A DNA stretch of 32,000 bases. Source: Mycolicibacterium smegmatis (GTDB lineage Bacteria > Actinomycetota > Actinomycetes > Mycobacteriales > Mycobacteriaceae). The notes under the pieces are model-generated. The model searched no databases. It was not told where the DNA came from and worked only from the letters and a program-made list of their open reading frames with translations. Location: positions 1,620,001 through 1,652,000 of the forward strand of contig NZ_LN831039.1 in the NCBI RefSeq assembly GCF_001457595.1. Direction: 5' to 3'. Positions 897 through 23,396 of the stretch are shown here, in pieces (the stretch's first letter is position 1; each line of letters begins with the position of its first letter). A program made the position numbers and the translations under genes.

Positions 897-1137
897 TGCC
901 TTGTGTCGCCGACGGCGGTCGCCGTGCTCTATCGGGCATTCGGAGTGGACGCTGTGCTGGATGGGTCGGATCGGAAAGTTCTTCGCAAACAGGTGACCGG
1001 TGTGTGTCGACCGCCGCTGGCCACCCCGCCGATGCGCGCGACATGGGCTTTCACTGTCGTCAGTTTCCCCGCAGCAACGCCCTCGCCGGTGTAGTCTCCG
1101 GGCGGATCTCCTTTGCGGAGACGGCACTTCGACGAGG

Positions 1138-3498: not shown

Positions 3499-3540
3499 CG
3501 AACCTGAAGCGATGAACCCGGTCCCGCCTACCCTGAAGCC

Positions 3541-6304: not shown

Positions 6305-6320
6305 TGTGCACTTTGACCCG
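6305..6320 (+). promoter_or_regulatory. Island box copy 1: TGTGCACTTTGACCCG
   Basis: Exact TGTGC-N3-TTGAC, 142 nt upstream of the MFS start at ATG 6455. It is one of four exact copies, all intergenic and all in the same orientation as the downstream gene. Confidence 0.55.
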
Positions 6321-6454
6321 AGCCCCGCGTAATGCGTTGTGCACCTTCACTTGACGGGAACCGCCAACACCGGGCCTCGCGGTGGGAGAGTGGCGGGCAG
6401 AGACATCCACGCGCACTCACCGATTCGTCAGCCAACAGGATGGTTACGCACAGC

Positions 6455-7831: not shown

Positions 7832-9517
7832 TCAGCGAAAGCTCGCCTCGCGTTCGACCGCGGAGTGCACCTCGTCGAGCAGATCGAGGCGGATGGCCAG
7901 CCACACCGTGAACTGGTGCTCCGGATCGCGGACATCCATGCCGAGCATGCGGGAGATCCGGTCGAGCTTGGCGAGCATGGTGTTGCGGTGCACGTTGAGC
8001 GTGCGCGCGGTGGCGTTGATGTTGCCGCCCTCGGACAGGTACGCCTCCAGCGTCTCCAGCAGATCGGGTGAGGAACGCAACGGCCCCAACACGTCTCGCA
8101 CCAGCTGGCGGCTGTCCTCGGTCTCGGCGACCTGGGCCAGCACCGTGAAACCCCGCAACTGTTGATACGACGTCGCACCCGTGCGGTGCAGGCGCCGCGC
8201 GATACCGAGCGCAACCCTGGCCTCCCGGTAGCTCTCCCGGACCTCCCCGGCGCCGAGCGCCGGGCGGCCGTAGGCGACGGGCGCGGGAAGGCCCCGTCGC
8301 CGCTGCAGCTCGCCGGACATGGCCTCGGCATACTCGGCCATCTCGCTGCGCATGGCCGCAGCGTCCTCGCCGCGCAACGTGCGGACCACGACGAGCACGT
8401 CGCCGATCACCGTGACGTAGGCATGCACCGACGGGTGCGCCGCCACCCCGGCCGCGTACCGCGCCAGCCGCACCATCGGCGTCGTAGGACTGTCGGAAAC
8501 CCTGGGCAGCACACCGGGCGCCACGAAAACACCGAACCGCGCGTCGAGTTCGATGTCGTGATGCTCGGCGCGGGCGCGCATGTCGTGCTCGCTGGAGAAG
8601 CTGCCGTGCACCAGGGCCTGGACGAAATCACCCCGCGCGCGTTCCTCGGCCTCGTCGACGCTGCGTTGCCGCAACATCTCCGACCCGATGATCGCGGTGG
8701 CCTGTTCGGTGAGCACCTCGTGCCGCGCCAGATCGTGCTTGCTCGGGCCGTCGGCGTGATCGGGAGCCAACGTCGGGACCAGGACGGCCACCCAGCCCTC
8801 GAACGACTTGCCCAGCCGGATCGCGCTCGCCACACACGTCCATCTGCTGTCCTCCGGACCGGTGACCTGCTGCGTGCGCGTGTCGTGGCCGTCGTGGCGC
8901 CGCTCCGACGCCGGGAGGTCGGCGGCCAGCATCCGGCTCACCGAATCGGCCAGGGCGGCCACGGCTTCGGGGGGCAGGCCGTGGTGGGCCACCACATGAC
9001 CGCGGGCATCGAGTGCCACGGCGGGATTGCGCGCCAGGTTGGACACCTCGCGCACCAAAATCTGCAGGCCCGCGCCACGGTGGAACAGGCCGGCCAGGGT
9101 GGCGTGCACGTGCGTCGAGTAGCGCATGACGTGCACCTCCTGGCTGAGCGCGCGCTCGGCCAGCAGCCGGTTGAGGGCCGCGAAACCCACCGGGATGCCG
9201 AGTTCCACGACCACCAGCCCGGCGGGCAGCCCGCCCAGGTCCGGTGGGGCGACACCGTCGACCAGCAGCGTGGTCGCGCCCCTGGCGGCGAGCGCCGAAA
9301 GCGTCGAAGCGCGGCCCGTCAACGATTCGGGGCGCGCGTACACCGCCACCGCGTCCAGCCGATCATGTTGTGACAGAACCTCGTTGAGTGGAAGCACCCA
9401 GGTGAGTTCCTCGTCGAGCAGGTCTTCGCCCGCGACGATCCGCGAACCAGCCATGAGGGACTCGTCCAGAAGCCCGCGCACCGTCATCCGGCCGCTGTCG
9501 ATCGGTGGTGCCGTCAT
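7832..9517 (-). CDS. PucR-family transcriptional regulator
   Basis: 561 aa. The C-terminal PucR-type HTH reads NINATARTLNVHRNTMLAKLDRISRMLGMDVRDPEHQFTVWLAIRL. ATG 9517 is preceded by a GGGGG Shine-Dalgarno sequence. It is divergent from the glcG-like/oxygenase operons. Confidence 0.85.
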   Translation of the reverse strand: MTAPPIDSGRMTVRGLLDESLMAGSRIVAGEDLLDEELTWVLPLNEVLSQHDRLDAVAVYARPESLTGRASTLSALAARGATTLLVDGVAPPDLGGLPAGLVVVELGIPVGFAALNRLLAERALSQEVHVMRYSTHVHATLAGLFHRGAGLQILVREVSNLARNPAVALDARGHVVAHHGLPPEAVAALADSVSRMLAADLPASERRHDGHDTRTQQVTGPEDSRWTCVASAIRLGKSFEGWVAVLVPTLAPDHADGPSKHDLARHEVLTEQATAIIGSEMLRQRSVDEAEERARGDFVQALVHGSFSSEHDMRARAEHHDIELDARFGVFVAPGVLPRVSDSPTTPMVRLARYAAGVAAHPSVHAYVTVIGDVLVVVRTLRGEDAAAMRSEMAEYAEAMSGELQRRRGLPAPVAYGRPALGAGEVRESYREARVALGIARRLHRTGATSYQQLRGFTVLAQVAETEDSRQLVRDVLGPLRSSPDLLETLEAYLSEGGNINATARTLNVHRNTMLAKLDRISRMLGMDVRDPEHQFTVWLAIRLDLLDEVHSAVEREASFR

Positions 9518-9611: not shown

Positions 9612-9713
9612 TCGCGGCGCATTTTTCCGGTCATATTAACCATCACCTGGTCGGTGTGCCCGTTGATAGACATGGCTCCGTCAGCCCGAGCTGCGAGAGA
9701 GCGAGAGAGACCA

Positions 9714-10160
9714 ATGCACAGAATTCACCGCATCACCCTCGACGACGCGTTGCCATTGCTGGCCGCGGGCCGTGCCAAAGCCGAGGAGATCGGGGTCAAG
9801 CAGACCCTGTGCATAGTGGACGACGGCGGCAATGTCATTGCGCTGCACCGGTTGCCGGGAGCCCGTCTGACCGGTGTGGACATCGCGATCGCGAAGGCCT
9901 TCACCGCCGCAGGTCACGAACGTGCCACCCACCTGTTCAACGAACCGCCCAACGGGCCCGCATTGCCCGGCAACGAGGCGTTCGGCATCAGCCATATGCT
10001 GCCCGGCAAGTTCGCGATCTTCGTCGGCGGGTTCCCGTTGGTCTACGACGGGCAGATCGTCGGGGGAGTGGGCATCAGCGGCGGCAACGGCGAGCAGGAC
10101 AAGGCCGTGGGGGCGGCGATCCTCGCCGAGTTCGAGGCGCTCACCGCCGCCCAGGTGTGA
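9714..10160 (+). CDS. GlcG/HbpS-like (DUF336) haem-binding-family protein
   Basis: Start placed at ATG 9714 (MHRIHRITLDDALPLLAAGRAKAEEIGV), preceded by the purine-rich GAGAGAGCGAGAGAGA. The DUF336 hallmark GGFPLVYDGQIVGGVGISGGNGEQDKAVG is present. The upstream part of ORF 9126..10160 is antisense to pucR and was rejected. Confidence 0.8.
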   Translation: MHRIHRITLDDALPLLAAGRAKAEEIGVKQTLCIVDDGGNVIALHRLPGARLTGVDIAIAKAFTAAGHERATHLFNEPPNGPALPGNEAFGISHMLPGKFAIFVGGFPLVYDGQIVGGVGISGGNGEQDKAVGAAILAEFEALTAAQV

Positions 10161-10278: not shown

Positions 10279-10998
10279 ATGACCGAGCTACTGGGACGCG
10301 ATGAATTCCGTGCCGAACTGGAGAACGCGATCAAGGGGCGTGAAGCCAAGAACGCCTCGTTCTCCAAGGCATGGGCCGAGGGCAAGCTGACCAAGGATCA
10401 CTTCGCCCGCTGGGCCGAGAACCACTACCACTACGTGGGCCCGTTCGCCGACTACCTGGCCAACATCTACTCCAACACCCCCGACGAGTTCACCGGCGCG
10501 AAAGACTTCACGCTGCAGAACATGTACGAGGAGGAGCTGGCCGACATCCGCCACACCGACCTGCTCATCAAGTTCGGTGAGGCGTGCGGGACCACGCGTG
10601 AGCGCATCGAGGACCCGTCGAACATGAACCCGATCACGCGCGGTCTGCAGGCGTGGTGCTATGCGGTCTCGCAGCGCGAGCACTTCGTGGTCGCCACCGC
10701 GGCGCTGGTGGTGGGCCTGGAATCCCAGGTGCCCAGCATCTACACCAAGCAGATCGTGCCCCTGCGCGAGGTGTACGGCTTCACCGAGGACGAGATCGAG
10801 TTCTTCGACCTGCACATCACGTCCGACGTCGTGCACGGCGAGCGCGGATACCAGATCGTGCTCGACCACGCCGACACCCCGCAGTTGCAGCAGCGCTGCC
10901 TGCAACTGGTGCGCTGGGGCGCCGAGATGCGCTTCTCCTACACCAAGGGCCTCTACGACTACTACGTCGCACCGGATCTCCAAGCCGCAGGCGTCTGA
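10279..10998 (+). CDS. Haem-oxygenase-fold (PqqC/TenA/CADD-like) protein with a complete putative diiron ligand set
   Basis: 239 aa and collinear with PqqC-like proteins (N-terminal LLGRDEFRAELE..., C-terminal tail LYDYYV). Candidate ligands are E85 (10531), H92 (10552), E148 (10720), H179 (10813), D183 (10825) and H186 (10834). This gives E-x6-H ... E ... H-x3-D-x2-H, the spacing I recall for the CADD diiron site. RBS AAAGGA lies before the ATG. Confidence 0.75.
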   Translation: MTELLGRDEFRAELENAIKGREAKNASFSKAWAEGKLTKDHFARWAENHYHYVGPFADYLANIYSNTPDEFTGAKDFTLQNMYEEELADIRHTDLLIKFGEACGTTRERIEDPSNMNPITRGLQAWCYAVSQREHFVVATAALVVGLESQVPSIYTKQIVPLREVYGFTEDEIEFFDLHITSDVVHGERGYQIVLDHADTPQLQQRCLQLVRWGAEMRFSYTKGLYDYYVAPDLQAAGV

Positions 10999-11043
10999 TC
11001 CCTGATCCCTGAAACCCCGCCGCCTCGACAGAAAGGTTGTGCT

Positions 11044-11394
11044 GTGACTGCGAACTGGGTTGCGGTGGCGAGCCGTAAAGAGCTCGCCCGCCGCCGCAAA
11101 CTCCGCGTGGAACTCGACGGTCTGGCCATCGCGCTGTTCGAGGCGGCGGGCCGGGTGTACGCATTCGCCGACGCATGCGTGCACCAGGACCGGTCGCTGG
11201 TCAAAGGCACCCTGCTGCACGGCAAGGTGATCTGCCCCGGCCACCAATGGCAGTTCGACCTGGAGACCGGATACGAGGAGAGCCAAGGCCGCTGCCAGCC
11301 CACCTACGCGGTGCGCGTCGACGACGACACCGTCTACGTGGACCCCACCGCGCGGATGTCACCCGTGACCGCAGGAGAGGAAGCCAACGCATGA
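11044..11394 (+). CDS. Rieske [2Fe-2S] ferredoxin 1 (small, NirD/HcaC-like)
   Basis: 116 aa. Rieske ligands are CVH (C-x-H) and CPGH (C-x-x-H) within CPGHQWQFDLETG. There is no catalytic oxygenase domain. GTG start with AAAGG upstream. The stop overlaps the next start (ATGA at 11391-11394). Confidence 0.85.
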   Translation: MTANWVAVASRKELARRRKLRVELDGLAIALFEAAGRVYAFADACVHQDRSLVKGTLLHGKVICPGHQWQFDLETGYEESQGRCQPTYAVRVDDDTVYVDPTARMSPVTAGEEANA

Positions 11395-12617
11395 CCGACC
11401 GCACCTTCGTGACCGTGGGGGCCGGACAGACCGCCGCGGTGGCAGCACGCACGCTGCGCCGCCGCGGGTTCGACGGCCGCATCATCCTGGTCGGTGACGA
11501 ACCGCACGCGCCGTACCAGCGGCCACCGCTGTCGAAGGAATTCCTCTGCGACACGGCCGCATCCGATGACCTGTGGATCCTGCCCGAGAAGTGGTGCGCC
11601 GACAACGGCGTCGAGATCCGCACCGGGGCCGAGGTCACCGGCGTCGATGCCGCCACGGGCACCGTCGAGATCGCCGGACAGGCACCGGTGCGCGCCGACG
11701 CGGTGCTGTTCGCCACGGGCGGGCGGCCCCGCCGCTTGCCGGTGCCCGGCCCCCGGCCAGAACTCGTGCACTACCTGCGCACTCTCGATGACGCACGACG
11801 CCTGCACGACGCCCTGGCATCCGGATGCCGTCTCGGTGTCATCGGCGCCGGCTTCGTCGGGCTCGAAATCGCCGCCACCGCAGTGGGTCTCGGCGCTTCG
11901 GTGACCGTGCTGGAAGCCGCGCCGATGCCGCTGGGCACCGTCGTCGGGTCACGCGTCGGCGCCGAGATCGTGCGCCTGCACCGCGGCAACGGGGTCGAAC
12001 TGCTCACCGGCGTGGCCGTGAACGGGGTACGCACCGACGCCGAGGGCGTCGTCGTCAGCACCGGCGCGCAGGACCTGCGCTTCGACGCCGTCGTGATCGG
12101 CATCGGCATCACCCCCAACACCGCTGTGGCCGAGGCCTCCGGGCTCGCGGTCGACGACGGCATCGTCGTCGACGCCCAGGGTCGCGCATCGATACCCAAC
12201 ATCTACGCCGCGGGCGACGTCGCGCGCCGCTACTCCGAACGCGCCGGAAAACACGTCCGCATCGAGCATTTCGACAACGCCAACCGGCAGGGCGCCGCGG
12301 TCGCCAACGCCATGCTGGGCCGCGACGCCGTCAACGACGACGCGCCGTGGTTCTGGTCCGACCAGTACGAGCACAACCTGCAACTGCTGGGCGAGGCCAC
12401 CGGCAACCTGGTGATCCGCGGCGACGTCGGCGAATTCGAGTTCACCGCGTTCTACGTCGACACCGACGACACGCTGCGCGGCGTGTTCACCGTCGACCGG
12501 GGTGAGGACGTCATGGTGGGCCGCGAACTGCTCGGCCGCCGCATCCCGCGCGCCGTCCTGGAAGACGACGACGCCGATTTGTGGGAACTCGTCGACACCG
12601 AGGAGGTGGCACAGTGA
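11391..12617 (+). CDS. FAD-dependent NAD(P)H:ferredoxin reductase (BphA4/putidaredoxin-reductase type)
   Basis: Begins MTDRTFVTVGAGQTAAVAARTLRRRGFDGRIILVGDEPHAPYQRPPLSK (FAD GxGxxA fold plus the RPPLSK motif). A second dinucleotide fold is GVIGAGFVGLEIAA, followed by AAGDVA. Start ATG 11391 was chosen within ORF 11175..12617 by translational coupling. Confidence 0.88.
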   Translation: MTDRTFVTVGAGQTAAVAARTLRRRGFDGRIILVGDEPHAPYQRPPLSKEFLCDTAASDDLWILPEKWCADNGVEIRTGAEVTGVDAATGTVEIAGQAPVRADAVLFATGGRPRRLPVPGPRPELVHYLRTLDDARRLHDALASGCRLGVIGAGFVGLEIAATAVGLGASVTVLEAAPMPLGTVVGSRVGAEIVRLHRGNGVELLTGVAVNGVRTDAEGVVVSTGAQDLRFDAVVIGIGITPNTAVAEASGLAVDDGIVVDAQGRASIPNIYAAGDVARRYSERAGKHVRIEHFDNANRQGAAVANAMLGRDAVNDDAPWFWSDQYEHNLQLLGEATGNLVIRGDVGEFEFTAFYVDTDDTLRGVFTVDRGEDVMVGRELLGRRIPRAVLEDDDADLWELVDTEEVAQ

Positions 12618-14056
12618 CTGTCGAGGGAGCCAACTTCATCGACGGGCAGTGGATCCCGGCCGCGTCGGGACGCACCTTCGCGCGTCACAACCCGGCCGAC
12701 CCCGACGATCTCGTCGGGGTCTTCCCGGCCTCCGACGGCGTCGACGTGCGCACCGCCGTCGACGCGCTCGACAAGGCCGCCCCCGAATGGGCCGCCACGC
12801 CGCCCGAACGCCGTGCGGCGATCCTGGAAGCCGCTGCCGTGCAACTGGAATCACGCGCAGCGGAGTTGATCGCCGAATTGATCCGCGAAGAGGGCAAGAC
12901 CACCGCCGAGGCCACCATGGAGGTGAGCCGGACCCCGGCGAACCTGCGCTTCTACGCCGGCGAGGCGCTGCGGTCCACGGGCACCACCTACCCCGCACCG
13001 GGGGAGGGTCTGGTCTACACGCTGCGTGAGCCCGTCGGCATCGTCGGCGCCATCACACCGTGGAACTTCCCGTTCAACATCCCGTCACGCAAACTCGGGC
13101 CGGCGCTCGCGGCAGGAAATCCGGTGCTGTACAAGCCCTCCGAACTCACCCCGCTGATGGGGCAGCGTCTGGTCGAGGCGTTGTTGGACGGTGGGCTGCC
13201 GCCCTCGGCGCTCGCGCTGGTCCAGGGCGACGGCGTGGCGGGTGCCGCGGTCGCCGCGGATCCACGCGTCGCAGCGGTCACCTTCACCGGGTCGACAGCC
13301 GTCGGCCGTGCGATCCACCAGCAGGTCGGACCCCAGCGCCGCGTCCAACTGGAGATGGGCGGCAAGAACCCCGTGGTGGTCGCCGGGGACGCCGACCTCG
13401 ACGCCGCGGCCGCCCTCATCGTCAAAGGCGCGTTCGGGCTCAGCGGACAGGCCTGCACCGGGACCAGCCGCGTGATCGCGGTCGACGAGATCCACGATGC
13501 GCTGCTCGACCGCGTGGTGGCCAAGGCCGACGCGCTGCAGGTCGGGCCCGGCAATCAGCCCGGTGTGCACATGGGTCCGCTGGCCAGCGCGGCCCAGAGG
13601 GAAAAGTTCCTGCACTACGTGCACGCCGGGATCACCGAGGGCGCCACCCTGCGCTGCGGCGGCACCACGGTGGGCGATCACGGATTCTTCGTCCGCCCGG
13701 CGGTTTTCGCCGACGCGCTGCCGACCATGCGCATCGTCACCGAGGAGGTGTTCGGGCCGCTGGTCGCGTTCCAGCGCGCGGCATCCCTCGACGAGGCCGT
13801 CGCGCTGGCCAACGCCACCGAGTACGGACTGGCGGCCTCGATCGTCACGTCGGACCTCGCCGCGGCGACACGGTTCGCCCGGCAGTCGAAGACCGGCCTG
13901 GTCAAGATCAACCAGCCGACCACGGGCATGGCGATGAACGCGCCCTTCGGCGGCTACAAGGCGTCGAGCACCCAGACCTTCAAGGAACAGGCCGGGCCGA
14001 CGCTCATGGAGTTCTACACGCTCGAGAAGACCGTCTACCTCACCCCGGCCCTCTGA
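12614..14056 (+). CDS. NAD(P)+-dependent aldehyde dehydrogenase
   Basis: GTG 12614 follows AGGAGG (12601-12606) and overlaps the reductase stop (GTGA). Contains FIDGQWIP, the ALDH glutamate box LEMGGKNP and the catalytic cysteine context GQACTGTSR. Confidence 0.9.
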   Translation: MTVEGANFIDGQWIPAASGRTFARHNPADPDDLVGVFPASDGVDVRTAVDALDKAAPEWAATPPERRAAILEAAAVQLESRAAELIAELIREEGKTTAEATMEVSRTPANLRFYAGEALRSTGTTYPAPGEGLVYTLREPVGIVGAITPWNFPFNIPSRKLGPALAAGNPVLYKPSELTPLMGQRLVEALLDGGLPPSALALVQGDGVAGAAVAADPRVAAVTFTGSTAVGRAIHQQVGPQRRVQLEMGGKNPVVVAGDADLDAAAALIVKGAFGLSGQACTGTSRVIAVDEIHDALLDRVVAKADALQVGPGNQPGVHMGPLASAAQREKFLHYVHAGITEGATLRCGGTTVGDHGFFVRPAVFADALPTMRIVTEEVFGPLVAFQRAASLDEAVALANATEYGLAASIVTSDLAAATRFARQSKTGLVKINQPTTGMAMNAPFGGYKASSTQTFKEQAGPTLMEFYTLEKTVYLTPAL

Positions 14057-14070
14057 ACACAGGAGCTGCA

Positions 14071-14424
14071 ATGGAATTCACCCGAGTCGCCAGATCCGGT
14101 CAGGTGCCCGAGGGCATCGTGCGACGGTTCTTCGCGGGCGAGTACGAGTTCGCCGTGGCCCGCCTCAACGGCAAGGCCTACGCGACGTCCAACTACTGCA
14201 CGCATCTGGACTGCATGCTCTCGTCGGGCAAGCTCGTCGACGACGGCATCGGATGCTCGTGCCACGGAAGTGCATTCGACCTCGAGACCGGTGAGCCCAT
14301 CTGCCCGCCCGCCACGGTCGCGATCAAGACCTACCCGGTCGAGGAACGCGACGGCGAGATCTTCGTCGGTGTCGAGCCGGGGGAGATGCCCGTCGGACCG
14401 CGGCGGCGACGCAAGGGGGCGTGA
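14071..14424 (+). CDS. Rieske [2Fe-2S] ferredoxin 2 (BphF/TodB-like)
   Basis: 117 aa. Ligands are CTH ... CSCH (CTHLDCMLSSG, CSCHGSAFDLETGE). AGGAG RBS is present. The stop overlaps the GGT-family gene start (GTGA at 14421-14424). Confidence 0.85.
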   Translation: MEFTRVARSGQVPEGIVRRFFAGEYEFAVARLNGKAYATSNYCTHLDCMLSSGKLVDDGIGCSCHGSAFDLETGEPICPPATVAIKTYPVEERDGEIFVGVEPGEMPVGPRRRRKGA

Positions 14425-16025
14425 GCCAGGTGCAGCGGCCGCCGACACTGTCCACCGGCGCGATGGTCAGCTCGAGCCATCCCGCCGCCAGCTTCGCCGG
14501 GGCGCGCGTACTCGCCGACGGCGGCAACGCGATCGACGCGACCCTGGCGATGGCCGCGGTCACGTGGCTGACGTTGCCCGGTCAATGCGGCATCGGCGGC
14601 GACGCGTTCGTCGTCGTGGCCGAACCCGACGGGCGGGTGTGGACGGTCAACGGGTCCGGCTTCGGCCCCGACGGCGGCACCACGGACTTCTATCGCGACA
14701 TTCAGGGCGAACGATCTGGTATTCCCCTGACCGGTGCGCTCGGTGTCGCGGTTCCCGGCGCCCCGGCGGCATTGGCCGCGTTGCACTCCCACGGCGCACG
14801 CATGTCGCTGGCGGAGCTGTGGGAACCGGCGGCGCGCATGGCCGAGAACGGACTGGCGTGCTCGGCCAAGACCGTCACCGACGTGCGGGAGACGTTCGAC
14901 GCGATCCGCGCCGACGACGGTCTGGCGGCCGTGTACACGCCCGACGGCGCCGTCCCCGCGGTGGGGCAGCGGTTGCCGCAACCCGACCTGGCCCGCACCA
15001 TCCGCCGGCTCGCCACCGCGCCCGGTGATTTCTACACCGGCGAGTTCGCCGAACGCGCCGTGGCGGTGCTGTGCGCGGCAGGCGCCCCGTTCAGCGGCGA
15101 CGAATGGGCCGCCGGTGCCGTCGTCGCTCCCGAGGCCCCGCTCACGGGCGGCTACGCCGGTGCGACGATTCACCAGACGCCACTACCCACCCCCGGCTGG
15201 ATGGTGTTGCAGCAGGCCGCGCTGTGCGACGGAACCCTCGGTGCGGCACCGTGGCTGGGCGCCGAGGCCATCGACCGCATGGCCCGGGCAGCTCGGCTGG
15301 CGTTCCAAGACCGGTTCGCGCTGTGCGGATCCGACGGCGCGGGTGTGCGAGAGGTGCTGGACGCCAACCGGATCGCCGAACAGCGGCGTGCTCTGGATGC
15401 GTCGGCGGAACAGCGGATGTCGTTCAGCGTCGCCGGCGGTGACACGACGTGCACGGTCGCCGTCGACGCCGACGGGCGTGCCGTGTCGTTCATCCATTCC
15501 CTGGGTTTCACGTTCGGGGCCAAGCTCACGGTGCCCGGAACCGGCGTCGTCCTCAACAACCGGTTGGGCCGCGGTGCCTACCTGATCCCCGGGCATCCCA
15601 ACGAGGTCGCGCCGCGCCGCAAACCACTGAACACCCTCAACGCCTGGATCGCCACCGGCGCCGATGGGGAACTGCTCGCCCTCGGCTCCATCCCCGGCGG
15701 CGATGGTCAGGTGCAGTGGAACATGCAGTTGCTCTCGCACCTGTTCGACCACGGGCTGGACCCGGCCGAGGCGGTCAGCGCACCGCGTTTCACGGTGTTC
15801 CCCGGATCCGACGCCGACGTCATCGGCAGGCCCGACGAATTGCGCGTCGAGGCAAGGATTCCCGACGACGTCCGGTCGGAGTTGCAGGACATGGGGCATC
15901 GCGTCGTGGTGCAACCGGATTTCGGCGCCGGCGGAAGCGCCCAGGTGATCCGCCGCGACGCGCGCGGTGTGCTCAGCGGCGCGGCCGACCCGCGTCAGGA
16001 AGGGATCGCGATCGGTGTCGAGTGA
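14421..16025 (+). CDS. Gamma-glutamyltransferase-family Ntn hydrolase
   Basis: 534 aa. The N-terminal region reads SSHPAASFAGARVLADGGNAIDATLA. The autoprocessing/nucleophile threonine context is GGDTTCTVAVDADGRAVSFIHSLG. Substrate cannot be read from sequence, because this family includes non-glutamyl amidohydrolases. Confidence 0.85.
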   Translation: MSQVQRPPTLSTGAMVSSSHPAASFAGARVLADGGNAIDATLAMAAVTWLTLPGQCGIGGDAFVVVAEPDGRVWTVNGSGFGPDGGTTDFYRDIQGERSGIPLTGALGVAVPGAPAALAALHSHGARMSLAELWEPAARMAENGLACSAKTVTDVRETFDAIRADDGLAAVYTPDGAVPAVGQRLPQPDLARTIRRLATAPGDFYTGEFAERAVAVLCAAGAPFSGDEWAAGAVVAPEAPLTGGYAGATIHQTPLPTPGWMVLQQAALCDGTLGAAPWLGAEAIDRMARAARLAFQDRFALCGSDGAGVREVLDANRIAEQRRALDASAEQRMSFSVAGGDTTCTVAVDADGRAVSFIHSLGFTFGAKLTVPGTGVVLNNRLGRGAYLIPGHPNEVAPRRKPLNTLNAWIATGADGELLALGSIPGGDGQVQWNMQLLSHLFDHGLDPAEAVSAPRFTVFPGSDADVIGRPDELRVEARIPDDVRSELQDMGHRVVVQPDFGAGGSAQVIRRDARGVLSGAADPRQEGIAIGVE

Positions 16026-16446
16026 GCAGACCGGCGCACCGGCGCCGCAGGGCGACTACCGGCCCGCGCTGTTGCATGACGGTGTCGTCTACACCGCGGG
16101 CATGACACCGCGCCGCGACGGTGAACTCGTGCTGCGCGGCGTCGTCGGGGTCACGGTGTCGGCCGGGCAGGCCTTCGACGCGGCCGGCATCGCCGCGGGC
16201 AACGCGCTGGCCGCGGCACGCTCGGTGCTGCCCGACGGTGCAACGGATGTCCGCTGCCTGCGCATGACCGTGTACATCGCGTGCGCTCAGTCGTTTCACG
16301 AGCTCTCCGCTGTGGCCGACGGTGCCTCGGCCGCGCTGGGCGCTGAGCTCGGCGGATCAGGCGTTCCGGTGCGCGCGGCCATCGGCGTGCAGACCCTGCC
16401 GTCGGGTGCGCCCGTCGAGGTGGATCTCATCGCTGCGGTGGTGTAG
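16015..16446 (+). CDS. RidA/YjgF/L-PSP-family protein (reactive enamine/imine deaminase family)
   Basis: Start placed at GTG 16015 (VSSEQTGAPAPQGDYRPALLHDGVVYTAGMTPR), with GAAGGGA 9 nt upstream and an 11-nt overlap with the GGT-family gene. Size of about 143 aa and the N-terminal Y..A...G.....G pattern fit the family. Confidence 0.7.
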   Translation: MSSEQTGAPAPQGDYRPALLHDGVVYTAGMTPRRDGELVLRGVVGVTVSAGQAFDAAGIAAGNALAAARSVLPDGATDVRCLRMTVYIACAQSFHELSAVADGASAALGAELGGSGVPVRAAIGVQTLPSGAPVEVDLIAAVV

Positions 16447-16514
16447 GTGCGGTTGTTCTGGTTGGCGGGTGTGAAAAGAAAAGGGGCACAGTGCACATGG
16501 ATCGGCAGCAACCA

Positions 16515-16530
16515 TGTGCGGTTTGACGCC
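16515..16530 (+). promoter_or_regulatory. Island box copy 4: TGTGCGGTTTGACGCC
   Basis: Exact TGTGC-N3-TTGAC, 97 nt upstream of the permease 2 start. It is preceded by ACAGTGCACA (16488-16497), which resembles the inverted-repeat arms at 6168-6205. Confidence 0.55.
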
Positions 16531-16619
16531 GGTGTCTTCCGGCAAATCGGTCGAATTGCGGAAAATGGTGAGCACCTTAGGGTTACATGAATTCAAGGTA
16601 GCCAGGCAGTTCTAGTCGA

Positions 16620-18140
16620 TTGGATGTGAACGCGGTGTCCGCAGCTCATTGGGTGTACCTGCTCGGTCTTGTGGTGTTGATCGGCACAGTGGTGGCCAAG
16701 AAGAACGTCATCGCGCCTGCGCTCATCGCCACATTCCTCACCGGATGGGTCTACCAGGGCAGCGTGACCACCGGGCTGGGAGCCATCTTCAACGCCGCGA
16801 TCGCCGGAACCCGCGAGTTACTGCCGATTTTCATCATCATCGCCCTCGTCACCGCGATGCTCGGTGCCATGCGTGCGCTGGGCTCCGACGCCATCATGAT
16901 CCGTCCGCTGCGCGGGTTGTTCCGCAACGGGCACATCTCCTACGTGTTGCTCGCTGTCGTGACGTTCCTTCTGTCGCTGGCGTTCTGGCCGACACCCGTG
17001 CTGCCGCTGATCGCGGCGATCCTGCTCCCGGCCGCCGTCCGCGCCGGCCTACCGCTGCTCGGCGCCGCACTCGCGATCGCCATCGCAGGCCAGGGCATGG
17101 CGCTGAGTTCGGACTACATCATGGGCGTGGCGCCTGCGCTCTCGGCCGAGGGCGCCGACGTTCCGGCCCGGTTGATCGCCGACCGTGCGACGGTCATCGC
17201 CCTGATCGCGGGCGCCGTGGCCTTGGCGATCGTGTATCTTCGCGACGTGCGCACCAAGGTGCGTGCCCCGGGCGATGGTGACGACATCGGTTCGGCTGCT
17301 TCGGGTTTCGCGCAGGATCCCGACTCGCCGGAGCCGAGTTCCGGCCCGATCGCCGGGCCTGGTGGTCAGGCAGACGGCGGCGCCTTGGCCACCCTCAGCG
17401 CGCCTGCGGCGACCGACGTCGAAGCGGCTCCGGGGCGCAAGGCCCTGCTGATCGCTGTCGCAGTGCCCGCACTGTTCGCCGGCCTGCTCGTCTTCATGCT
17501 CCTCGGGCGGTTCACCACGGTCATCCCCGACATCGACGAAGGTCTCGGCGCTCCGCTGGTTGGCGGCACCGCTGCTCTCGCGCTCGTGGCAATCGCTCTG
17601 ATCAGCAACCGCAAACGCTGGCTCGACGACGTCGGCGAGCACTTCACCGAAGGCATCGGCTTCTCGTTCCGCACCATGGGCATGGTCATCCCGGTCGCGG
17701 GATTCGTCTACATCGGCCTGGCCGACTACTCCGCGGGCATCCTGGGCCTGCCGGAAGGCGCCGAGGCGCCGGCCTTCTTGTTCGACGCCGTCGGCGCGGT
17801 ACAGGACCACATCCCGGCGGCCCCGGCCTTCGCGGCCTTCGCGATGTTGATCGTCGGCATGCTGATCGGGCTGGACGGCAACGGCTGGCCCGGTCTCCCG
17901 TTCACGGGTTCGCTGGCGTCGACTCTCGGGGACGGGACGTCCGACGTCGCCACCTTGGCGGCGATCGCGCAGAACGGTGCCAGCTGGACCGGGGGCGGCA
18001 CGCTGGTGATCTGGTCGTCACTGATCGTCGTCGCGGGTCTTACCGGGGTGTCGGTGATGGACCTGGCCCGACGCCTGTTCATCCCGGTCGTCACAGGACT
18101 TGTGGTGGCCACCGGCATCGCGACGGTGGTGCTGCTGTGA
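16620..18140 (+). CDS. Polytopic permease, paralogue 2 (same family as 4455..6083)
   Basis: 506 aa. TTG start at 16620; in-frame GTG 16626 is an alternative. It has the same two-half architecture as permease 1, with a divergent acidic/Pro-rich central loop (GDGDDIGSAASGFAQDPDSPEPSSGPIAGPGGQADGG). The stop overlaps the amidase start (GTGA at 18137-18140). Confidence 0.8.
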   Translation: MDVNAVSAAHWVYLLGLVVLIGTVVAKKNVIAPALIATFLTGWVYQGSVTTGLGAIFNAAIAGTRELLPIFIIIALVTAMLGAMRALGSDAIMIRPLRGLFRNGHISYVLLAVVTFLLSLAFWPTPVLPLIAAILLPAAVRAGLPLLGAALAIAIAGQGMALSSDYIMGVAPALSAEGADVPARLIADRATVIALIAGAVALAIVYLRDVRTKVRAPGDGDDIGSAASGFAQDPDSPEPSSGPIAGPGGQADGGALATLSAPAATDVEAAPGRKALLIAVAVPALFAGLLVFMLLGRFTTVIPDIDEGLGAPLVGGTAALALVAIALISNRKRWLDDVGEHFTEGIGFSFRTMGMVIPVAGFVYIGLADYSAGILGLPEGAEAPAFLFDAVGAVQDHIPAAPAFAAFAMLIVGMLIGLDGNGWPGLPFTGSLASTLGDGTSDVATLAAIAQNGASWTGGGTLVIWSSLIVVAGLTGVSVMDLARRLFIPVVTGLVVATGIATVVLL

Positions 18141-19636
18141 GCGAGGTGCACGCAGTGCCTGGTCGCACCGTCGCCGAGACGGCCGCCCTGGTGCGTTCGG
18201 GTGAGATGAGCGCCCACGCCGTCGTGCAGGAGGCCCTCGACCGGATCGAGGAGTGCGATGGTGCGCTCGGCGCGTTCGTCCACGTCGACGCCGAGGGCGC
18301 ACTGCAGCGGGCGAGCGCGGTCGACCGGCTGGTGGCAGACGGCATCGATCCCGGGCCGATGGCCGGAATCCCCTTGGGCGTCAAGGAACTTCATCCGGTG
18401 GACGGCTGGCCGTTCGCGATGGGCAGCACGCTGTACGCCGAGCGGATCGCCGACCACACCTGCACCCTGGTGCAACGTGCCGTCTCGGCGGGTGCGGTGC
18501 CCATCGGCGTGACGGCCTCACCGGAGTTCGGGCGGGCGTCTTTCACCGCGTCGGCCGTGCACGGCGTGACCCGCAATCCGTGGAATCTCGATCTCACCCC
18601 CGGCGGGTCGAGCGGGGGGTCGGCGGCCGCGGTGGCCGCGGGCATGGTGCCGATCGCTACGGGCACCGACGGTGCGGGCTCGTTGCGTATCCCGGCGTCG
18701 TACTGCGGTCTGGTGGGGTTCAAGGCCACATACGGCCTGGTCCCGCGCGGGCCCCGGCATGTCGGTGCGGCCGACAACGACCACTACGGCGTGCTCACAC
18801 GCACCGTGCGCGACACCGCCCGTTTTCTCGACTGCGTTTGTGGGATCGATCCGTTCGACCGGGCCTCACTGCCCGCGTCGACCCGGTTCGAAGACCACCT
18901 GACCGCCGATCTGCGTGGGCTTCGCGTCGCCTTCACACCCGATCTGGGCAATGCGCCCAGCGACACACAGGTCGTGGAGGTGGTGCGGACAGCGGCCGAG
19001 AAATTCGTCGCCGCCACCGGTGCCCAGTCGGTGCCCGCTCAAGTGTGCGTCGATCCGGACTGCGGCGCCGCCTACCGCACACTCTCGGCGCCCGACGTGC
19101 ACACACACCTACGTGATGCGCCGGCCGGGCGGAACATCCACCCGACGCTGCGCGGTTACCTGGACGCCGCGGGCGCCATGACCGCCGAGACGCTCGCCGA
19201 CGCCCACGAGGCACGCGCCCGTCTCGTCGCGACGATGGCCGAGGCATTCGAGCGTTTCGACCTGCTCCTGCTGCCCGCCACGCAGGTCCCGGCGTTCGCG
19301 GCCGAGGGTCCCATGCCCACCGAGATCGCGGGGCAGAAGGTGGACCACTGGGGTGCGTTGGCCGTGACCTTGCCGTTCAACCTGACCGGTCAGCCGGCCG
19401 TGTCGGTGCCGGCAGGCGTCGTCGGCGGTGCTCCGGTCGGCCTGCAGATCGTGGGCCGTCGTCACGCCGACGCACTGGTGCTCGCGGCCGCCTCGGCGGA
19501 TGCTGCGCTGACCTGCTGGTCGGACCGGTTCCGCGAATGTGAAACCGCTGCGAGAAAATGGCCGCTGGATCGCGCTGAGTTCACACTCGCGGCGCGGTTT
19601 CGCGTCAGGTTCACACTCGCGATCCCGGTCCGGTGA
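18137..19636 (+). CDS. Amidase-signature (AS) family amidase
   Basis: Contains the AS motif GGSSGGSAAAVAAGMVPIATGTDGAGSLRIPASYCGLVGFKATYG and the upstream lysine context IPLGVKE. The last 35 or so codons run through a repeat cluster (19532-19621), so the true C-terminus is uncertain. Confidence 0.88.
   Translation: MSEVHAVPGRTVAETAALVRSGEMSAHAVVQEALDRIEECDGALGAFVHVDAEGALQRASAVDRLVADGIDPGPMAGIPLGVKELHPVDGWPFAMGSTLYAERIADHTCTLVQRAVSAGAVPIGVTASPEFGRASFTASAVHGVTRNPWNLDLTPGGSSGGSAAAVAAGMVPIATGTDGAGSLRIPASYCGLVGFKATYGLVPRGPRHVGAADNDHYGVLTRTVRDTARFLDCVCGIDPFDRASLPASTRFEDHLTADLRGLRVAFTPDLGNAPSDTQVVEVVRTAAEKFVAATGAQSVPAQVCVDPDCGAAYRTLSAPDVHTHLRDAPAGRNIHPTLRGYLDAAGAMTAETLADAHEARARLVATMAEAFERFDLLLLPATQVPAFAAEGPMPTEIAGQKVDHWGALAVTLPFNLTGQPAVSVPAGVVGGAPVGLQIVGRRHADALVLAAASADAALTCWSDRFRECETAARKWPLDRAEFTLAARFRVRFTLAIPVR
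19532..19621. repeat. Nested direct and inverted 13-17 bp repeats at the island / ribosomal-operon junction
   Basis: GTTCACACTCGCG occurs twice in direct orientation (19579-19591 and 19609-19621, 30-bp period). CGCGAATGTGAAAC (19532-19545) is its near reverse complement. GAAACCGC (19541-19548) pairs with GCGGTTTC (19594-19601). Confidence 0.6.
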
Positions 19637-19825: not shown

Positions 19826-20194
19826 GTGATTCAGCAGGAATCGCGGTTGAAGGTCGCCGACAACACGGGCGCCAAGGAGATCTTGTGCATCCGCGTTCTC
19901 GGTGGCTCGTCGCGGCGCTACGCCGGAATCGGCGATGTCATCGTGGCGACCGTCAAGGACGCCATCCCGGGCGGCAACGTCAAGCGTGGCGATGTCGTCA
20001 AGGCCGTCGTGGTCCGCACCGTCAAGGAGCGGCGTCGTGCTGACGGCAGCTATATCAAGTTCGATGAGAACGCCGCCGTCATCATCAAGAACGACAACGA
20101 TCCGCGCGGCACGCGCATCTTCGGCCCCGTGGGCCGCGAACTGCGCGAGAAGAAGTTCATGAAGATCGTCTCGCTTGCCCCGGAGGTGCTGTAA
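19826..20194 (+). CDS. rplN: 50S ribosomal protein L14
   Basis: [27 protein letters not shown]... is the canonical L14 sequence. GTG start follows AGGAG. Confidence 0.98.
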
Positions 20195-20512
20195 ATGAAG
20201 GTGCACAAGGGTGACACCGTCCTGGTGATCTCTGGCAAGGACAAGGGCGCCAAGGGCAAGGTGCTGGTCGCCTACCCCGACCGCAACAAGGTCCTGGTCG
20301 AAGGCGTGAACCGGATCAAGAAGCACACCGCTGTCTCGGCCAACGAACGCGGCGCCTCGTCGGGTGGCATCGTCACCCAGGAAGCGCCCATCCACGTCTC
20401 GAACGTGATGGTGGTCGATTCCGACGGCAAGCCGACCCGTGTCGGATACCGCATTGACGACGAGACCGGCAAGAAGGTCCGCATCGCCAAGACCAACGGC
20501 AAGGACATCTGA
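20195..20512 (+). CDS. rplX: 50S ribosomal protein L24
   Basis: [24 protein letters not shown]... (KOW motif). The ATG directly follows the rplN TAA. Confidence 0.97.
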
Positions 20513-21075
20513 TGACTACCACTGAAAAGGCTCTGCCCCGGCTCAAGCAGCGCTACCGCGAAGAGATCCGCGAAGCGCTCCAGCAGGAGTTCAACTACGC
20601 CAACGTCATGCAGATCCCCGGCGTCGTCAAGGTCGTCGTCAACATGGGTGTCGGTGACGCCGCCCGCGACGCCAAGCTGATCAACGGTGCGATCAACGAC
20701 CTCGCGCTGATCACCGGCCAGAAGCCGGAGGTTCGCCGGGCCCGCAAGTCGATCGCGCAGTTCAAGCTGCGTGAAGGCATGCCGATCGGTGCGCGCGTCA
20801 CGCTGCGCGGCGACCGGATGTGGGAGTTCCTCGACCGGCTCATCTCGATCGCGCTGCCGCGTATCCGCGACTTCCGCGGTCTGTCGCCCAAGCAGTTCGA
20901 CGGCACGGGCAACTACACCTTCGGGCTGAACGAGCAGTCGATGTTCCACGAGATCGACGTGGACAGCATCGACCGGCCGCGCGGCATGGACATCACCGTC
21001 GTCACCACGGCGACGAACGACGCTGAAGGCCGCGCGCTGCTGCGGGCGCTGGGCTTCCCGTTCAAGGAGAACTGA
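20512..21075 (+). CDS. rplE: 50S ribosomal protein L5
   Basis: [38 protein letters not shown]... is L5. TGATG overlap with rplX. Confidence 0.97.
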
Positions 21076-21078
21076 GCT

Positions 21079-21264
21079 ATGGCAAAGAAGGCGCTGGTCC
21101 ACAAGGCCAACAAGAAGCCCAAGTTCGCGGTCCGCGCGTACACGCGGTGCAACAAGTGCGGTCGCCCGCACTCGGTCTACCGCAAGTTCGGGTTGTGCCG
21201 CATCTGCCTGCGCGAGATGGCGCACGCGGGTGAGCTCCCCGGCGTGCAGAAGTCCAGCTGGTAA
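21079..21264 (+). CDS. rpsN: 30S ribosomal protein S14, short zinc-binding type Z
   Basis: 61 aa with CNKC ... CRIC, i.e. two CxxC pairs, the zinc-ribbon form of S14. Confidence 0.96.
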
Positions 21265-21362
21265 CAGCTGCGCGGCGCGCACAACCCCATACAGACCCAA
21301 CCAAACAGATTGCGGCAGGCCCCTTATGAGGGAACCGTCGCGAGGAAGGTGAGCCGGTTGTC

Positions 21363-21761
21363 ATGACGATGACTGACCCGATCGCAGACTTCTTGACACG
21401 TCTGCGCAACGCCAATTCGGCGTATCACGATGAGGTGACTCTGCCCCACTCGAAGCTCAAGGCGAACATCGCCGAGATCTTGAAGCGTGAGGGCTACATC
21501 TCCGATTACCGCACCGAGGATGCTCGGGTCGGAAAGTCGCTGGTGGTGCAGCTCAAGTACGGCCCCAGCCGTGAGCGCAGCATCGCCGGCCTGCGACGGG
21601 TTTCCAAGCCCGGTCTGCGGGTCTACGCGAAATCCACCAACCTGCCCCGTGTGCTCGGCGGCCTCGGCGTGGCGATCATCTCCACGTCCTCCGGCCTGCT
21701 CACCGATCGCCAGGCAGCACGACAGGGCGTGGGCGGCGAAGTCCTCGCGTACGTGTGGTGA
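21363..21761 (+). CDS. rpsH: 30S ribosomal protein S8
   Basis: [25 protein letters not shown]... is canonical S8. Confidence 0.97.
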
Positions 21762-21775
21762 GAGGTAGATAAGAC

Positions 21776-22315
21776 ATGTCGCGTATTGGAAAGCAGCCGG
21801 TTCCGGTTCCCTCCGGGGTCGATGTGACCATCAACGGTCAGAATCTGTCGGTCAAGGGCCCCAAGGGCACCCTGACCCTGGACGTCGCAGAGCCCATCTC
21901 GGTCTCGCGTGCCGAGGACGGCGCCATCGTGGTGACCCGTCCCGACGATGAGCGGCGCAGCCGCAGCCTTCACGGGCTGTCGCGCACGCTGATCGCCAAC
22001 CTGGTGACCGGTGTCACCGAGGGGTACACGCAGAAGATGGAGATCTTCGGCGTCGGTTACCGCGTGCAGCTCAAGGGCCAGAACCTGGAGTTCGCGCTGG
22101 GCTACAGCCATCCCGTCCTGATCGAGGCGCCCGAGGGCATCACCTTCGCGGTGGAGTCGCCGACGAAGTTCTCGGTGTCGGGCATCGACAAGCAGAAAGT
22201 CGGACAGATCTCGGCGGTCATCCGTCGCCTGCGCCGTCCCGACCCGTACAAGGGCAAGGGCGTGCGTTACGAGGGTGAGCAGATCCGCCGCAAGGTCGGA
22301 AAGACAGGTAAGTAA
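21776..22315 (+). CDS. rplF: 50S ribosomal protein L6
   Basis: [33 protein letters not shown]... is canonical L6. Confidence 0.97.
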
Positions 22316-22318
22316 GCA

Positions 22319-22726
22319 ATGGCTACCAAGACTGAAGGCACCGTGGCTCACAAGCCGGTCGGCCAGAACATCTCCGAGGTTCGCCGCAACGCACGGCTGC
22401 GTCGCCACGCACGCCTGCGCAAGAAGGTCGCCGGCACCGCCGAGGTGCCCCGCCTGGTGGTGAACCGGTCGGCTCGCCACATCCACGTCCAGCTGGTCAA
22501 CGACCTCAACGGCACCACCTTGGCCGCGGCGTCGTCGATCGAGGCCGATGTGCGCGCCATCGATGGCGACAAGAAGGCCCACAGCGTTCGGGTCGGTCAG
22601 CTGATCGCCGAGCGTGCCAAGGCAGCCGGGGTCGAGACCGTCGTGTTCGACCGCGGTGGCTACACCTACGGCGGCCGCATCGCTGCGCTGGCAGACGCCG
22701 CGCGTGAGGCAGGGCTGAAATTCTGA
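22319..22726 (+). CDS. rplR: 50S ribosomal protein L18
   Basis: [35 protein letters not shown]...[26 protein letters not shown] is canonical L18. Confidence 0.97.
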
Positions 22727-22748
22727 TGACCGGCAACGAGAGGACTGC

Positions 22749-23396
22749 ATGATGGCCGAGCAGGCTGGCGCCGGTTCGGCGCAGGACAATCGCGGTGGCC
22801 GTGGCCGCCGTGACGACCGTGGCGGCCGTGGCCGCGACGGTGGTGACAAGAGCAACTACATCGAACGCGTGGTGTCGATCAACCGGGTTTCCAAGGTCGT
22901 CAAGGGCGGCCGCCGGTTCAGCTTCACCGCGCTGGTGATCGTCGGCGACGGCAAAGGCATGGTCGGCGTCGGTTACGGCAAGGCCAAGGAAGTTCCGGCC
23001 GCCATCGCCAAGGGTGTCGAAGAAGCTCGTAAGAACTTCTTCCGGGTGCCGCTCATCGGCAGCACCATCACCCACCCGGTTCAGGGCGAGGCCGCTGCCG
23101 GTGTCGTGATGCTGCGCCCGGCCAGCCCGGGTACCGGTGTGATCGCCGGCGGTGCCGCTCGTGCGGTGCTGGAGTGCGCGGGCGTGCACGACATCCTGGC
23201 CAAGTCGCTGGGCAGCGACAACGCGATCAACGTGGTTCACGCCACCGTTGCCGCGCTGAAGCTGCTGCAGCGGCCCGAGGAAGTGGCGGCCCGTCGCGGT
23301 CTGCCCATCGAGGACGTTGCGCCGGCCGGCATGCTGAAGGCCCGGCGCGAGAGCGAAGCGCTGGCCGCCGCGGCTGCGCGTGAGGGATCGGCATAA
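22749..23396 (+). CDS. rpsE: 30S ribosomal protein S5 with an Arg/Gly-rich N-terminal extension
   Basis: The S5 core reads [44 protein letters not shown]. The N-terminus is [24 protein letters not shown] 22749 or 22752. Confidence 0.96.

Follow-up and report, generated by a model that had tools for sequence, protein, structure and literature searches.

A PucR-linked operon of Mycolicibacterium smegmatis with a GGT-family Ntn hydrolase as the probable actinobacterial counterpart of the dipicolinate (dip) cluster

Among the small molecules of bacterial spores, dipicolinate is the main one, and it accounts for a large share of the spore. Its standing stock in soils and sediments is estimated at gigatonnes of carbon (PMC11472048). 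Of the aerobic pathway for its degradation, only the initial step has been assigned to a gene. In the dip cluster of Alcaligenes faecalis JQ135, which is also present in Cupriavidus and Bordetella, dipD encodes the monooxygenase component needed for the conversion of dipicolinate to 3-hydroxydipicolinate, and GTATAC is the operator of DipR, a GntR/FadR repressor (PMC11472048). The roles of the other dip genes were stated to "still remain unclear". The dipicolinate degraders listed in that work include Mycobacterium frederiksbergense 23ON, Rhodococcus sp. 23C1 and Cupriavidus campinensis 23K8, and its reference list places the identification of alpha-ketoglutarate and 3-hydroxydipicolinate in dipicolinate oxidation in 1962 (PMC11472048). 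Here, a stretch of 32,000 nucleotides from Mycolicibacterium smegmatis (contig NZ_LN831039.1, positions 1,620,001 to 1,652,000; hereafter the window) was analysed, and a seven-gene core operon at window positions 10279-16446 was delimited. By gene content, this operon is probably an actinobacterial, PucR-linked counterpart of the dip cluster that acts on dipicolinate.

The operon contains a hydrolase of the GGT family, and the described non-glutamyl members of this fold are relevant to its reading. The actinobacterial GGT homologues Ant6 and LmbA2991 are processed at an Asp-Thr bond and hydrolyse a C-C bond beside an alpha-keto acid, and oxalic acid is freed via an oxalyl-Thr intermediate (PMC5519988). 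The oxamate amidohydrolase HpxW is encoded in one operon together with hpxZ (PMC3560190). Both of these well-studied members of the fold therefore act on an oxalyl group.

All seven genes of the core operon lie on the plus strand. The first encodes a heme-oxygenase-like diiron oxygenase (HDO) assigned to the DipD type (10279-10998; PF14518). It is followed by Rieske ferredoxin 1 (11044-11394), an open reading frame whose end overlaps the start of an FAD/NAD(P)H ferredoxin reductase (11391-12617; PF07992 and PF14759; top NCBIfam models, the HcaD and AndAa reductases). The last four genes encode an aldehyde dehydrogenase (ALDH; 12614-14056; PF00171, E 1.5e-144), Rieske ferredoxin 2 of 117 amino acids (Rieske2; 14071-14424; PF00355; ATG start, ribosome-binding site caggag, CTH...CSCHG motifs), the GGT-family Ntn hydrolase (14421-16025; PF01019, E 7.8e-91) and a Rid-family protein (16015-16446; GTG start; PF01042). 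Between neighbouring genes from HDO to Rid there is either an overlap or a short spacer. The ALDH start overlaps the reductase stop by 4 nt, the Rieske2 gene is translationally coupled to the GGT gene, and the GGT and Rid genes overlap by 11 nt, with translational coupling on both sides of the GGT gene. In a preliminary description of this DNA, the ALDH, the GGT-family protein with its intact DTT motif, the Rid protein, and an amidase coupled to a permease had been taken as one hydrolase and detoxification module. The genes named there are present and intact, and both reported couplings (the 11-nt overlap and the permease-amidase junction, a 4-nt overlap) are seen. Rieske2, between ALDH and GGT, had gone unmentioned. 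The block consists of two units rather than one, namely the tail of the operon and a separate permease 2/amidase unit, which is set off by a gap of 174 nt after Rid and has its own TGTGC-N3-TTGAC box at 16515. A detoxification role is not indicated.

The relation to the dip cluster is carried first by the oxygenase. The database labels for the HDO are "TenA family regulator", "PQQ synthase" and "iron-containing redox enzyme", and among solved structures its relatives are CADD-type pABA synthases and PqqC. A biosynthetic role of the pABA or CADD kind was considered for the operon and rejected. In a translated search, proteins encoded on plasmid or chromid records of Cupriavidus campinensis, C. 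metallidurans CH34, Caballeronia and Skermanella matched the HDO at 66-70% identity. Among 1.84 billion representatives, one full-length relative was found at 67% identity, and the next full-length relatives stood at 47% and 39%. In a maximum-likelihood tree, the actinobacterial and proteobacterial HDOs formed one clade with support of 100/99 on a long stem (1.01).

The gene neighbourhood extends this relation. The Caballeronia locus comprises, in order, an unannotated 537-amino-acid membrane protein, a porin, a GntR regulator, an alpha/beta hydrolase, a ferredoxin, a 116-amino-acid protein and a second ferredoxin. Its divergent arm comprises the HDO, an ALDH, a "heme-binding" GlcG-like protein, a BenC/MmoC-type reductase, an OCD-family protein and an MFS transporter. 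Five GTATAC hexamers occur in the locus, four of them in promoter or intergenic regions. The 116-amino-acid protein (L091 11078-11428, minus strand) has no NCBIfam match and is without a counterpart in the window. Judged by these features, the proteobacterial GntR/GTATAC clusters appear to match the published dip cluster. Four window proteins are common to the dip-type loci of Caballeronia and Cupriavidus: the HDO, permease 1 (46-48% identity; 542 amino acids, 4455-6083, minus strand), the ALDH (47%) and a GlcG/HbpS-like DUF336 protein (58%; about 9656-10160, plus strand, conserved portion from ~9714; PF03928). A DHA2-type MFS transporter (6332-7831, plus strand, start codon uncertain; PF07690, TIGR00711) is weakly shared, and the alpha/beta hydrolase, the OCD protein, the 116-amino-acid protein and the plant-type ferredoxins of the proteobacterial cluster are not shared. 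Since the oxygenase, the permease, the ALDH and the GlcG-like protein are orthologous or closely related to those of the dip-type clusters, dipicolinate is the best-supported substrate. Moreover, all three degrader taxa carry the HDO cluster in sequenced genomes, a correlation that holds at species or genus level only.

The conservation of the operon was evaluated in 80 loci, which were fetched from species-representative genomes with the GGT protein as query and onto which all window proteins were mapped. The gene order of the window is kept in most loci, with rearrangement in a few distant ones, and this arrangement is far beyond chance. The core genes were found in 72 (HDO), 73 (Rieske ferredoxin 1), 74 (ferredoxin reductase), 72 (ALDH), 78 (Rieske2) and 72 (Rid) of the loci, and the upstream genes in 62 (permease 1), 69 (MFS transporter), 72 (PucR regulator) and 63 (GlcG-like protein); the gaps fall mostly at contig ends. 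The Rid alignment begins -10 to +105 nt from the end of the GGT match. The identity of the HDO was 79-97% (median 92%) across the 72 actinobacterial loci, and that of Rieske2 was 60-97% (median 85%), whereas their operon neighbours were far less conserved across genera (58-74%). This exceptional conservation suggests that the HDO and Rieske2 form a tight complex or have many constrained surfaces. In the same comparison, no gene 3' of Rid was conserved outside close relatives, and the cluster therefore ends at Rid. The slot 3' of Rid varies among loci (L026, L027, L039, L044, L063); some Mycolicibacterium loci have another permease (51%) and another amidase (~31%) there, and some Rhodococcus loci have a third permease paralogue (48%) alone.

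The taxa with the cluster include Mycolicibacterium, Rhodococcus, Nocardia, Gordonia, Dietzia, Halopolyspora, Nocardioidaceae, Intrasporangiaceae and Jatrophihabitantaceae, and the cluster was seen in two M. frederiksbergense genomes and in about 25 Rhodococcus genomes. The distribution is sporadic. The cluster occurred in two of 36 genomes of the genus in one draw, and the HDO in two of 400 genomes of an even phylum sample. A literature search for the combination of HDO, Rieske, GGT, amidase and PucR gave no match. No ferredoxin-fed catabolic member was mentioned in a 2026 review of HDO enzymes, and no link to the operon was made in a paper on the nitrogen-limitation transcriptome of M. smegmatis.

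A third arrangement is present in two actinobacterial genomes, G122 and G150. Their clusters combine a GntR regulator and GTATAC boxes with an HDO, Fer2 and Rieske ferredoxins, an ALDH, a GlcG-like protein and an OCD protein, and a GGT-family gene directly adjoins the HDO. Its product is ~30% identical to the window GGT and has the NR-x-GRG motif in common with it, a motif that is lacking in HpxW, in 2nlz and in the genome's own GGT paralogue. SDR, MFS and DUF1330 genes are additionally found in the G122 cluster. This DipR-type hybrid locus (L095; G122:C1:670500-690400) belongs to an actinobacterial genome of 2.0 Mb with 51% GC; its GTATAC boxes lie in three divergent promoter regions, and a family-5 solute-binding protein is encoded in the cluster. 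The HDO, the ALDH, the GlcG-like protein and [2Fe-2S] carriers are constant in the three variants, and in each of them the oxygenase is joined by a hydrolase and by an enzyme that handles imines. The proteobacterial type has the alpha/beta hydrolase with OCD, the second actinobacterial type has the distant GGT-family protein with OCD, and the window type has the GGT-like protein with Rid in place of the hydrolase and OCD pair. The imino-acid enzyme is thus either an OCD-type ketimine reductase or Rid.

The enzymes downstream of the oxygenase were evaluated individually. The top models for the ALDH were those for 2,5-dioxovalerate (alpha-ketoglutarate semialdehyde, KGSA) dehydrogenase, with 490 bits for NF052305 and 444 bits for NF042993, both scores being under the curated cut-offs of 750 and 770. 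The same two models were best for the Caballeronia ALDH (560 and 550 bits vs 427), again below the curated cut-offs. These two models led the next family by more than 80 bits in the window (444 vs 361) and by more than 120 bits in Caballeronia. Comparison of the ALDH with solved structures gave no specific assignment. For the Rid protein, the best solved relatives were PA0814 and ACIAD3089, with which the Arg of "RAA(I/V)GV" is conserved. Its "PVRAAIGV" aligns with "HARAAVGV" of PA0814 (9bk9), and the active-site Arg (R105 of RidA) is kept. From this motif, Rid is tentatively proposed to be a 2-imino-acid deaminase, an assignment that is possible rather than probable. The imine step and the aldehyde step that the preliminary description had foreseen are both plausible in an oxygenase-initiated catabolic operon.

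In the GGT-family protein, the nucleophile motif G340-D341-T342-T343 is intact. D341-T342 aligns with Q390-T391 of E. coli GGT, and G426-G427, the oxyanion hole, with G483-G484. Both pairs and the stretch N379-N380-R381-x-G383-R384-G385 are invariant in 21 orthologues. The residues with which E. coli GGT holds the alpha-amino and alpha-carboxylate groups of the gamma-glutamyl moiety are replaced relative to 2e0w (R114->S, N411->G, Q430->R, D432/D433->G/R, S462->N and S463->T), and the insertion that follows the gamma-glutamyl-binding motif in E. coli GGT is absent. The N-terminus, MSQVQRPPTLSTGAMV, is without a hydrophobic stretch by inspection, a dedicated signal-peptide predictor not having been used, and by residue 10 the alignment has already reached residue 21 of the chain in the solved E. 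coli GGT structure. The protein is predicted to be cytoplasmic, with no room for a signal peptide. A canonical GGT for the salvage of glutathione and gamma-glutamyl peptides, standing in the operon by chance, would account for the matches to PF01019 and TIGR00066. The TIGR00066 score, however, was 247 bits against a cut-off of 358, the binding residues are replaced, a signal peptide is lacking, and the gene is translationally coupled to both neighbours and keeps its synteny in more than 70 loci. This explanation is scarcely credible, and glutathione salvage was rejected on account of the replaced glutamyl-binding residues and the missing room for a signal peptide. The preliminary description had likewise disfavoured glutathione recycling.

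The same residues bear on a pathway that runs by gamma-glutamylation like Puu, Ipu or Pip, in which a glutamine-synthetase-like (GS-like) ligase would be encoded elsewhere, the oxygenase and the ALDH would oxidise the alkyl part, and the GGT would remove glutamate. The set of oxygenase, ALDH and hydrolase resembles the ipu and puu operons, and 10 genes of the GS family are present in the genome. The nearest of these is ~460 kb away; no PF00120 gene was found in the window, in line with the earlier statement that the block lacks a glutamyl-ligase, and in all 80 loci the 10 kb around the GGT orthologue were free of one. Furthermore, the glutamyl-holding residues are absent from the hydrolase, with Arg or Gly at the D433 region, and the oxygenase is orthologous to that of a pyridine hydroxylase cluster. 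A gamma-glutamylation pathway is very improbable, and it was rejected because no ligase lies near any of the 80 loci and the glutamyl-binding residues are replaced.

The subfamily of the hydrolase was placed by bit scores and motif comparison. The best whole-length solved relatives were the "GGT-related" proteins 2nlz and 2i3o, and for the catalytic small subunit the best solved match was the oxamate amidohydrolase HpxW (5HFT), a narrow preference of 90.9 vs 83 bits. The predicted model of the protein (pTM 0.86) agrees with the fold in Foldseek, which separates no subfamilies and ranks single-chain precursors at the top by length. The HpxW match raises the alternative of a purine or ureide branch like hpxWXYZ, in which the GGT-family protein would be an oxamate amidohydrolase, Rid the counterpart of HpxZ, and PucR a purine regulator. 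The operon of hpxW with hpxZ fits this, HpxZ presumably being Rid-like as the preliminary description had it, and PucR regulators owe their name to purine catabolism. Further hpx or puc genes are absent, however, and the operon is headed by an oxygenase of the DipD type that has an electron chain of its own; on these two grounds, the hpx-like branch was rejected as a most unlikely origin of the operon. Oxamate could also be a substrate of the hydrolase within a dipicolinate route, and the purine alternative would then differ only in the source of oxamate. Accordingly, of the substrates proposed earlier, an imported N-heterocycle is upheld in outline by the oxygenase-led operon, and a purine, a ureide or a simple amide is not, other hpx and puc genes being absent. 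The D-T motif, the narrow HpxW match, the extra conserved Arg residues and the logic of the pathway are consistent with an oxalyl-releasing hydrolase, a function that is put forward here with reserve.

A lower pathway for dipicolinate can be formulated from these enzymes. The HDO system would hydroxylate dipicolinate to 3-hydroxydipicolinate, in which C2 and its carboxylate can be viewed as an oxalyl unit bound to N1 and C3. Ring opening at N1=C2 would give 2-amino-5-hydroxy-6-oxohepta-2,4-dienedioate. Thr342 would then attack the alpha-keto carbon and the dienamine would leave, a C-C cleavage as in Ant6/LmbA, and the hydrolysis of oxalyl-Thr342 would release oxalate. Alternatively, C2-C3 would break first, and the GGT-like enzyme would hydrolyse an N-oxalyl enamine by C-N cleavage, as HpxW does on oxamate. 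The C5 product, 2-amino-5-hydroxypenta-2,4-dienoate, would tautomerise to 2-imino-5-oxopentanoate, which the translationally coupled Rid would convert to 2,5-dioxopentanoate and ammonia, and the ALDH would oxidise 2,5-dioxopentanoate to 2-oxoglutarate. The mass balance of this proposed route closes (3-hydroxydipicolinate + 3 H2O + NAD+ = oxalate + NH3 + 2-oxoglutarate + NADH), and a ring-cleaving dioxygenase would not be needed. The individual step assignments are each held with limited confidence. The GGT-family protein may represent a third, catabolic class of oxalyl-transferring Ntn hydrolases that, with Rid and the KGSA-type ALDH, completes a hydrolytic lower dipicolinate pathway; this reading of the whole is speculative, and it is doubtful that all of it holds.

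Several points weigh against a dipicolinate operon of this kind. The regulator of the window is PucR, not GntR/DipR (7832-9517, minus strand; PF13556, PF17853), the window contains zero copies of GTATAC, and the electron carriers, Rieske ferredoxins with their reductase, are unlike those of the published dip cluster. The identity of DipD of JQ135 with the HDO follows only from cluster content and operon layout, the published degrader strains are not the sequenced genomes that carry the cluster, and an HDO identity of 66-70% is no proof of the same substrate. On the chemical side, the proposed route names no catalyst for the ring opening and no role for the GlcG-like protein or Rieske2, and the ALDH scores and the HpxW preference count here as well. 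Oxalate as an end product belongs to the same list, since it is only reportedly a finding of the 1962 work on dipicolinate oxidation.

An alternative is the same architecture acting on another anionic N-heterocycle, such as another pyridine di- or monocarboxylate or chelidamate, which the HDO would hydroxylate and whose fission product the hydrolase, Rid and the ALDH would process. The regulator, the electron carriers and the type of hydrolase all differ from the published cluster, the sequenced strains are without a known phenotype, and HDO enzymes can switch specificity with few substitutions. The cross-phylum HDO identity and the sharp separation of the clade from all other relatives argue against another substrate. 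So do the co-occurrence of the same unusual permease, ALDH and GlcG-like protein, and an ALDH like KGSA dehydrogenase, which suits the C5 product known for dipicolinate. A different heterocycle is considered unlikely, although it retains some weight, and dipicolinate is preferred as the substrate.

The uptake of the substrate may be served by permease 1. This protein lies outside all Pfam and NCBIfam families and is 46-48% identical to the 537-amino-acid membrane protein, labelled "hypothetical", that the dip-type clusters of Caballeronia and Cupriavidus encode. A transporter family of ~510-545 amino acids without a Pfam or NCBIfam model is common to the actinobacterial and proteobacterial dip-type clusters (for example, L091 5947-7560). 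By language-model features, this family is like the DcuC/GntP carboxylate carriers, which is a lead only. The family is a candidate dipicolinate transporter, with permease 1 as the candidate importer.

Four exact TGTGC-N3-TTGAC boxes occur in the window, at 6305 (before the MFS gene), 9596 (GlcG), 10167 (HDO) and 16515 (permease 2). With one mismatch allowed, seven matches were found vs 2.1 expected. Exact boxes stand at corresponding positions in many Mycolicibacterium loci, and not in those of Rhodococcus or Gordonia. The box may serve as an operator for PucR or be part of a promoter.

The fourth box (16515-16527, plus strand) precedes the accessory unit, which is therefore probably co-regulated with the operon. 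This unit consists of permease 2 (16620-18140, plus strand), a paralogue of permease 1 recognised by its identity to the permease 1 orthologues (~45%; 40-42% to the proteobacterial permease), and of the amidase-signature enzyme (18137-19636, plus strand; PF01425, E 1.1e-94; PRK06169 as top NCBIfam model, below its cut-off). Orthologues of the two were found in 11 of the 80 loci, always together and all in Mycolicibacterium or Mycobacterium. The amidase was present in five of 150 genomes of the genus, each time 2-3.6 kb downstream of the GGT orthologue and beside permease 2. The amidase is thus an optional addition with its own permease, not part of the core as had been assumed, and the pair is probably an optional unit of the same regulon. 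The PF01425 match spans positions 2-445 of 445, and "GGSSGGSAAAV" and "GVKE" of the Ser-cisSer-Lys signature are present. The best solved relative was an aryl acylamidase (209 bits), and the structures gave no specific assignment. Through this unit an amide may be imported and channelled into the pathway, which would widen its substrate range. The amidase reading frame extends ~40 residues beyond the point where most orthologues stop aligning (~454-461; window 19500-19636), and in the closest genome (G560, 85% identity) a TGA lies within the match to the amidase tail. This extension may be a read-through into the junction between island and core, where short repeats had been noted earlier.

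The genome is a single contig of 6.98 Mb with high GC. In it, the ~15-kb cluster sits as an insertion between an arylsulfatase/FGE pair (1000-4431) on one side and rplN of the ribosomal spc operon (rplN-rplX-rplE; 19826-23396) on the other. We take this insertion point to be the atsA-Rv0712-Rv0713/rplN junction of M. tuberculosis.

The operon would be an independent and widely distributed actinobacterial version of the dip system, and the comparison of variants singles out particular enzymes as candidates for the steps still missing. The regulator, the electron chain and the lower-pathway enzymes are new relative to the published cluster, and testable step assignments are given. If the proposed pathway is true, one of the many uncharacterised actinobacterial GGT homologues gains a physiological role, a catabolic case is added to the rare oxalyl-Thr chemistry of the GGT fold, and the fate of the most abundant spore metabolite is settled. 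The alpha/beta hydrolase with OCD and the GGT-like protein with Rid would then be interchangeable for the same two steps.

Among more distant systems, the Rut pathway (RutA-G) and the vitamin-B6 route, the latter with MHPC oxygenase and 2-(acetamidomethylene)succinate hydrolase, follow the same plan, with an oxygenase on an N-heterocycle, a hydrolase on the fission product and a semialdehyde that is oxidised or reduced. In the Rut pathway, moreover, RutC, a protein of the Rid type, takes care of the enamine or imine. Both routes differ from the window operon in that their oxygenase and hydrolase families are unrelated and their substrates are others. At the level of the hydrolase, Ant6 and LmbA2991 are likewise GGT-fold Ntn hydrolases with an Asp-Thr processing motif and no role in glutathione metabolism. 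They release oxalic acid and leave an enamine diene, which is the chemistry proposed for the window GGT. They are biosynthetic enzymes for 4-alkyl-proline units with ~620 amino acids and only ~30% identity, whereas the context of the window GGT is catabolic. Klebsiella HpxW (PDB 5HFT) also lacks the canonical insertion after the NNQMDDF-type motif and has the "GGDGQ-Q" and "P-x-(H/N)-T-L-N" stretches in common with the window GGT. It acts on an oxalyl amide and belongs to the hpxWXYZ operon. It differs in serving purine catabolism and in having "QNRGAAF" in place of the invariant "NNRLGRGAY" of the window family, and its match is only marginally better than others.

The closest system is the A. 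faecalis JQ135 dip cluster, together with the Cupriavidus and Caballeronia counterparts. A DipD-type oxygenase, an adjoining ALDH, a GlcG-like protein, the permease family, an MFS transporter and dedicated [2Fe-2S] electron carriers are found in both. The regulation differs, with PucR and the TGTGC-N3-TTGAC box in the window and GntR/DipR and GTATAC in the dip cluster. The electron chain consists of two Rieske ferredoxins and a ferredoxin reductase in the window, whereas plant-type ferredoxins and a BenC/MmoC-type reductase are used in the dip cluster. The porin of the dip cluster has no place in the window, and some actinobacterial genomes add the permease-amidase unit. Finally, the lower enzymes are a GGT-family Ntn hydrolase and Rid in the window and an alpha/beta hydrolase and OCD in the dip cluster.

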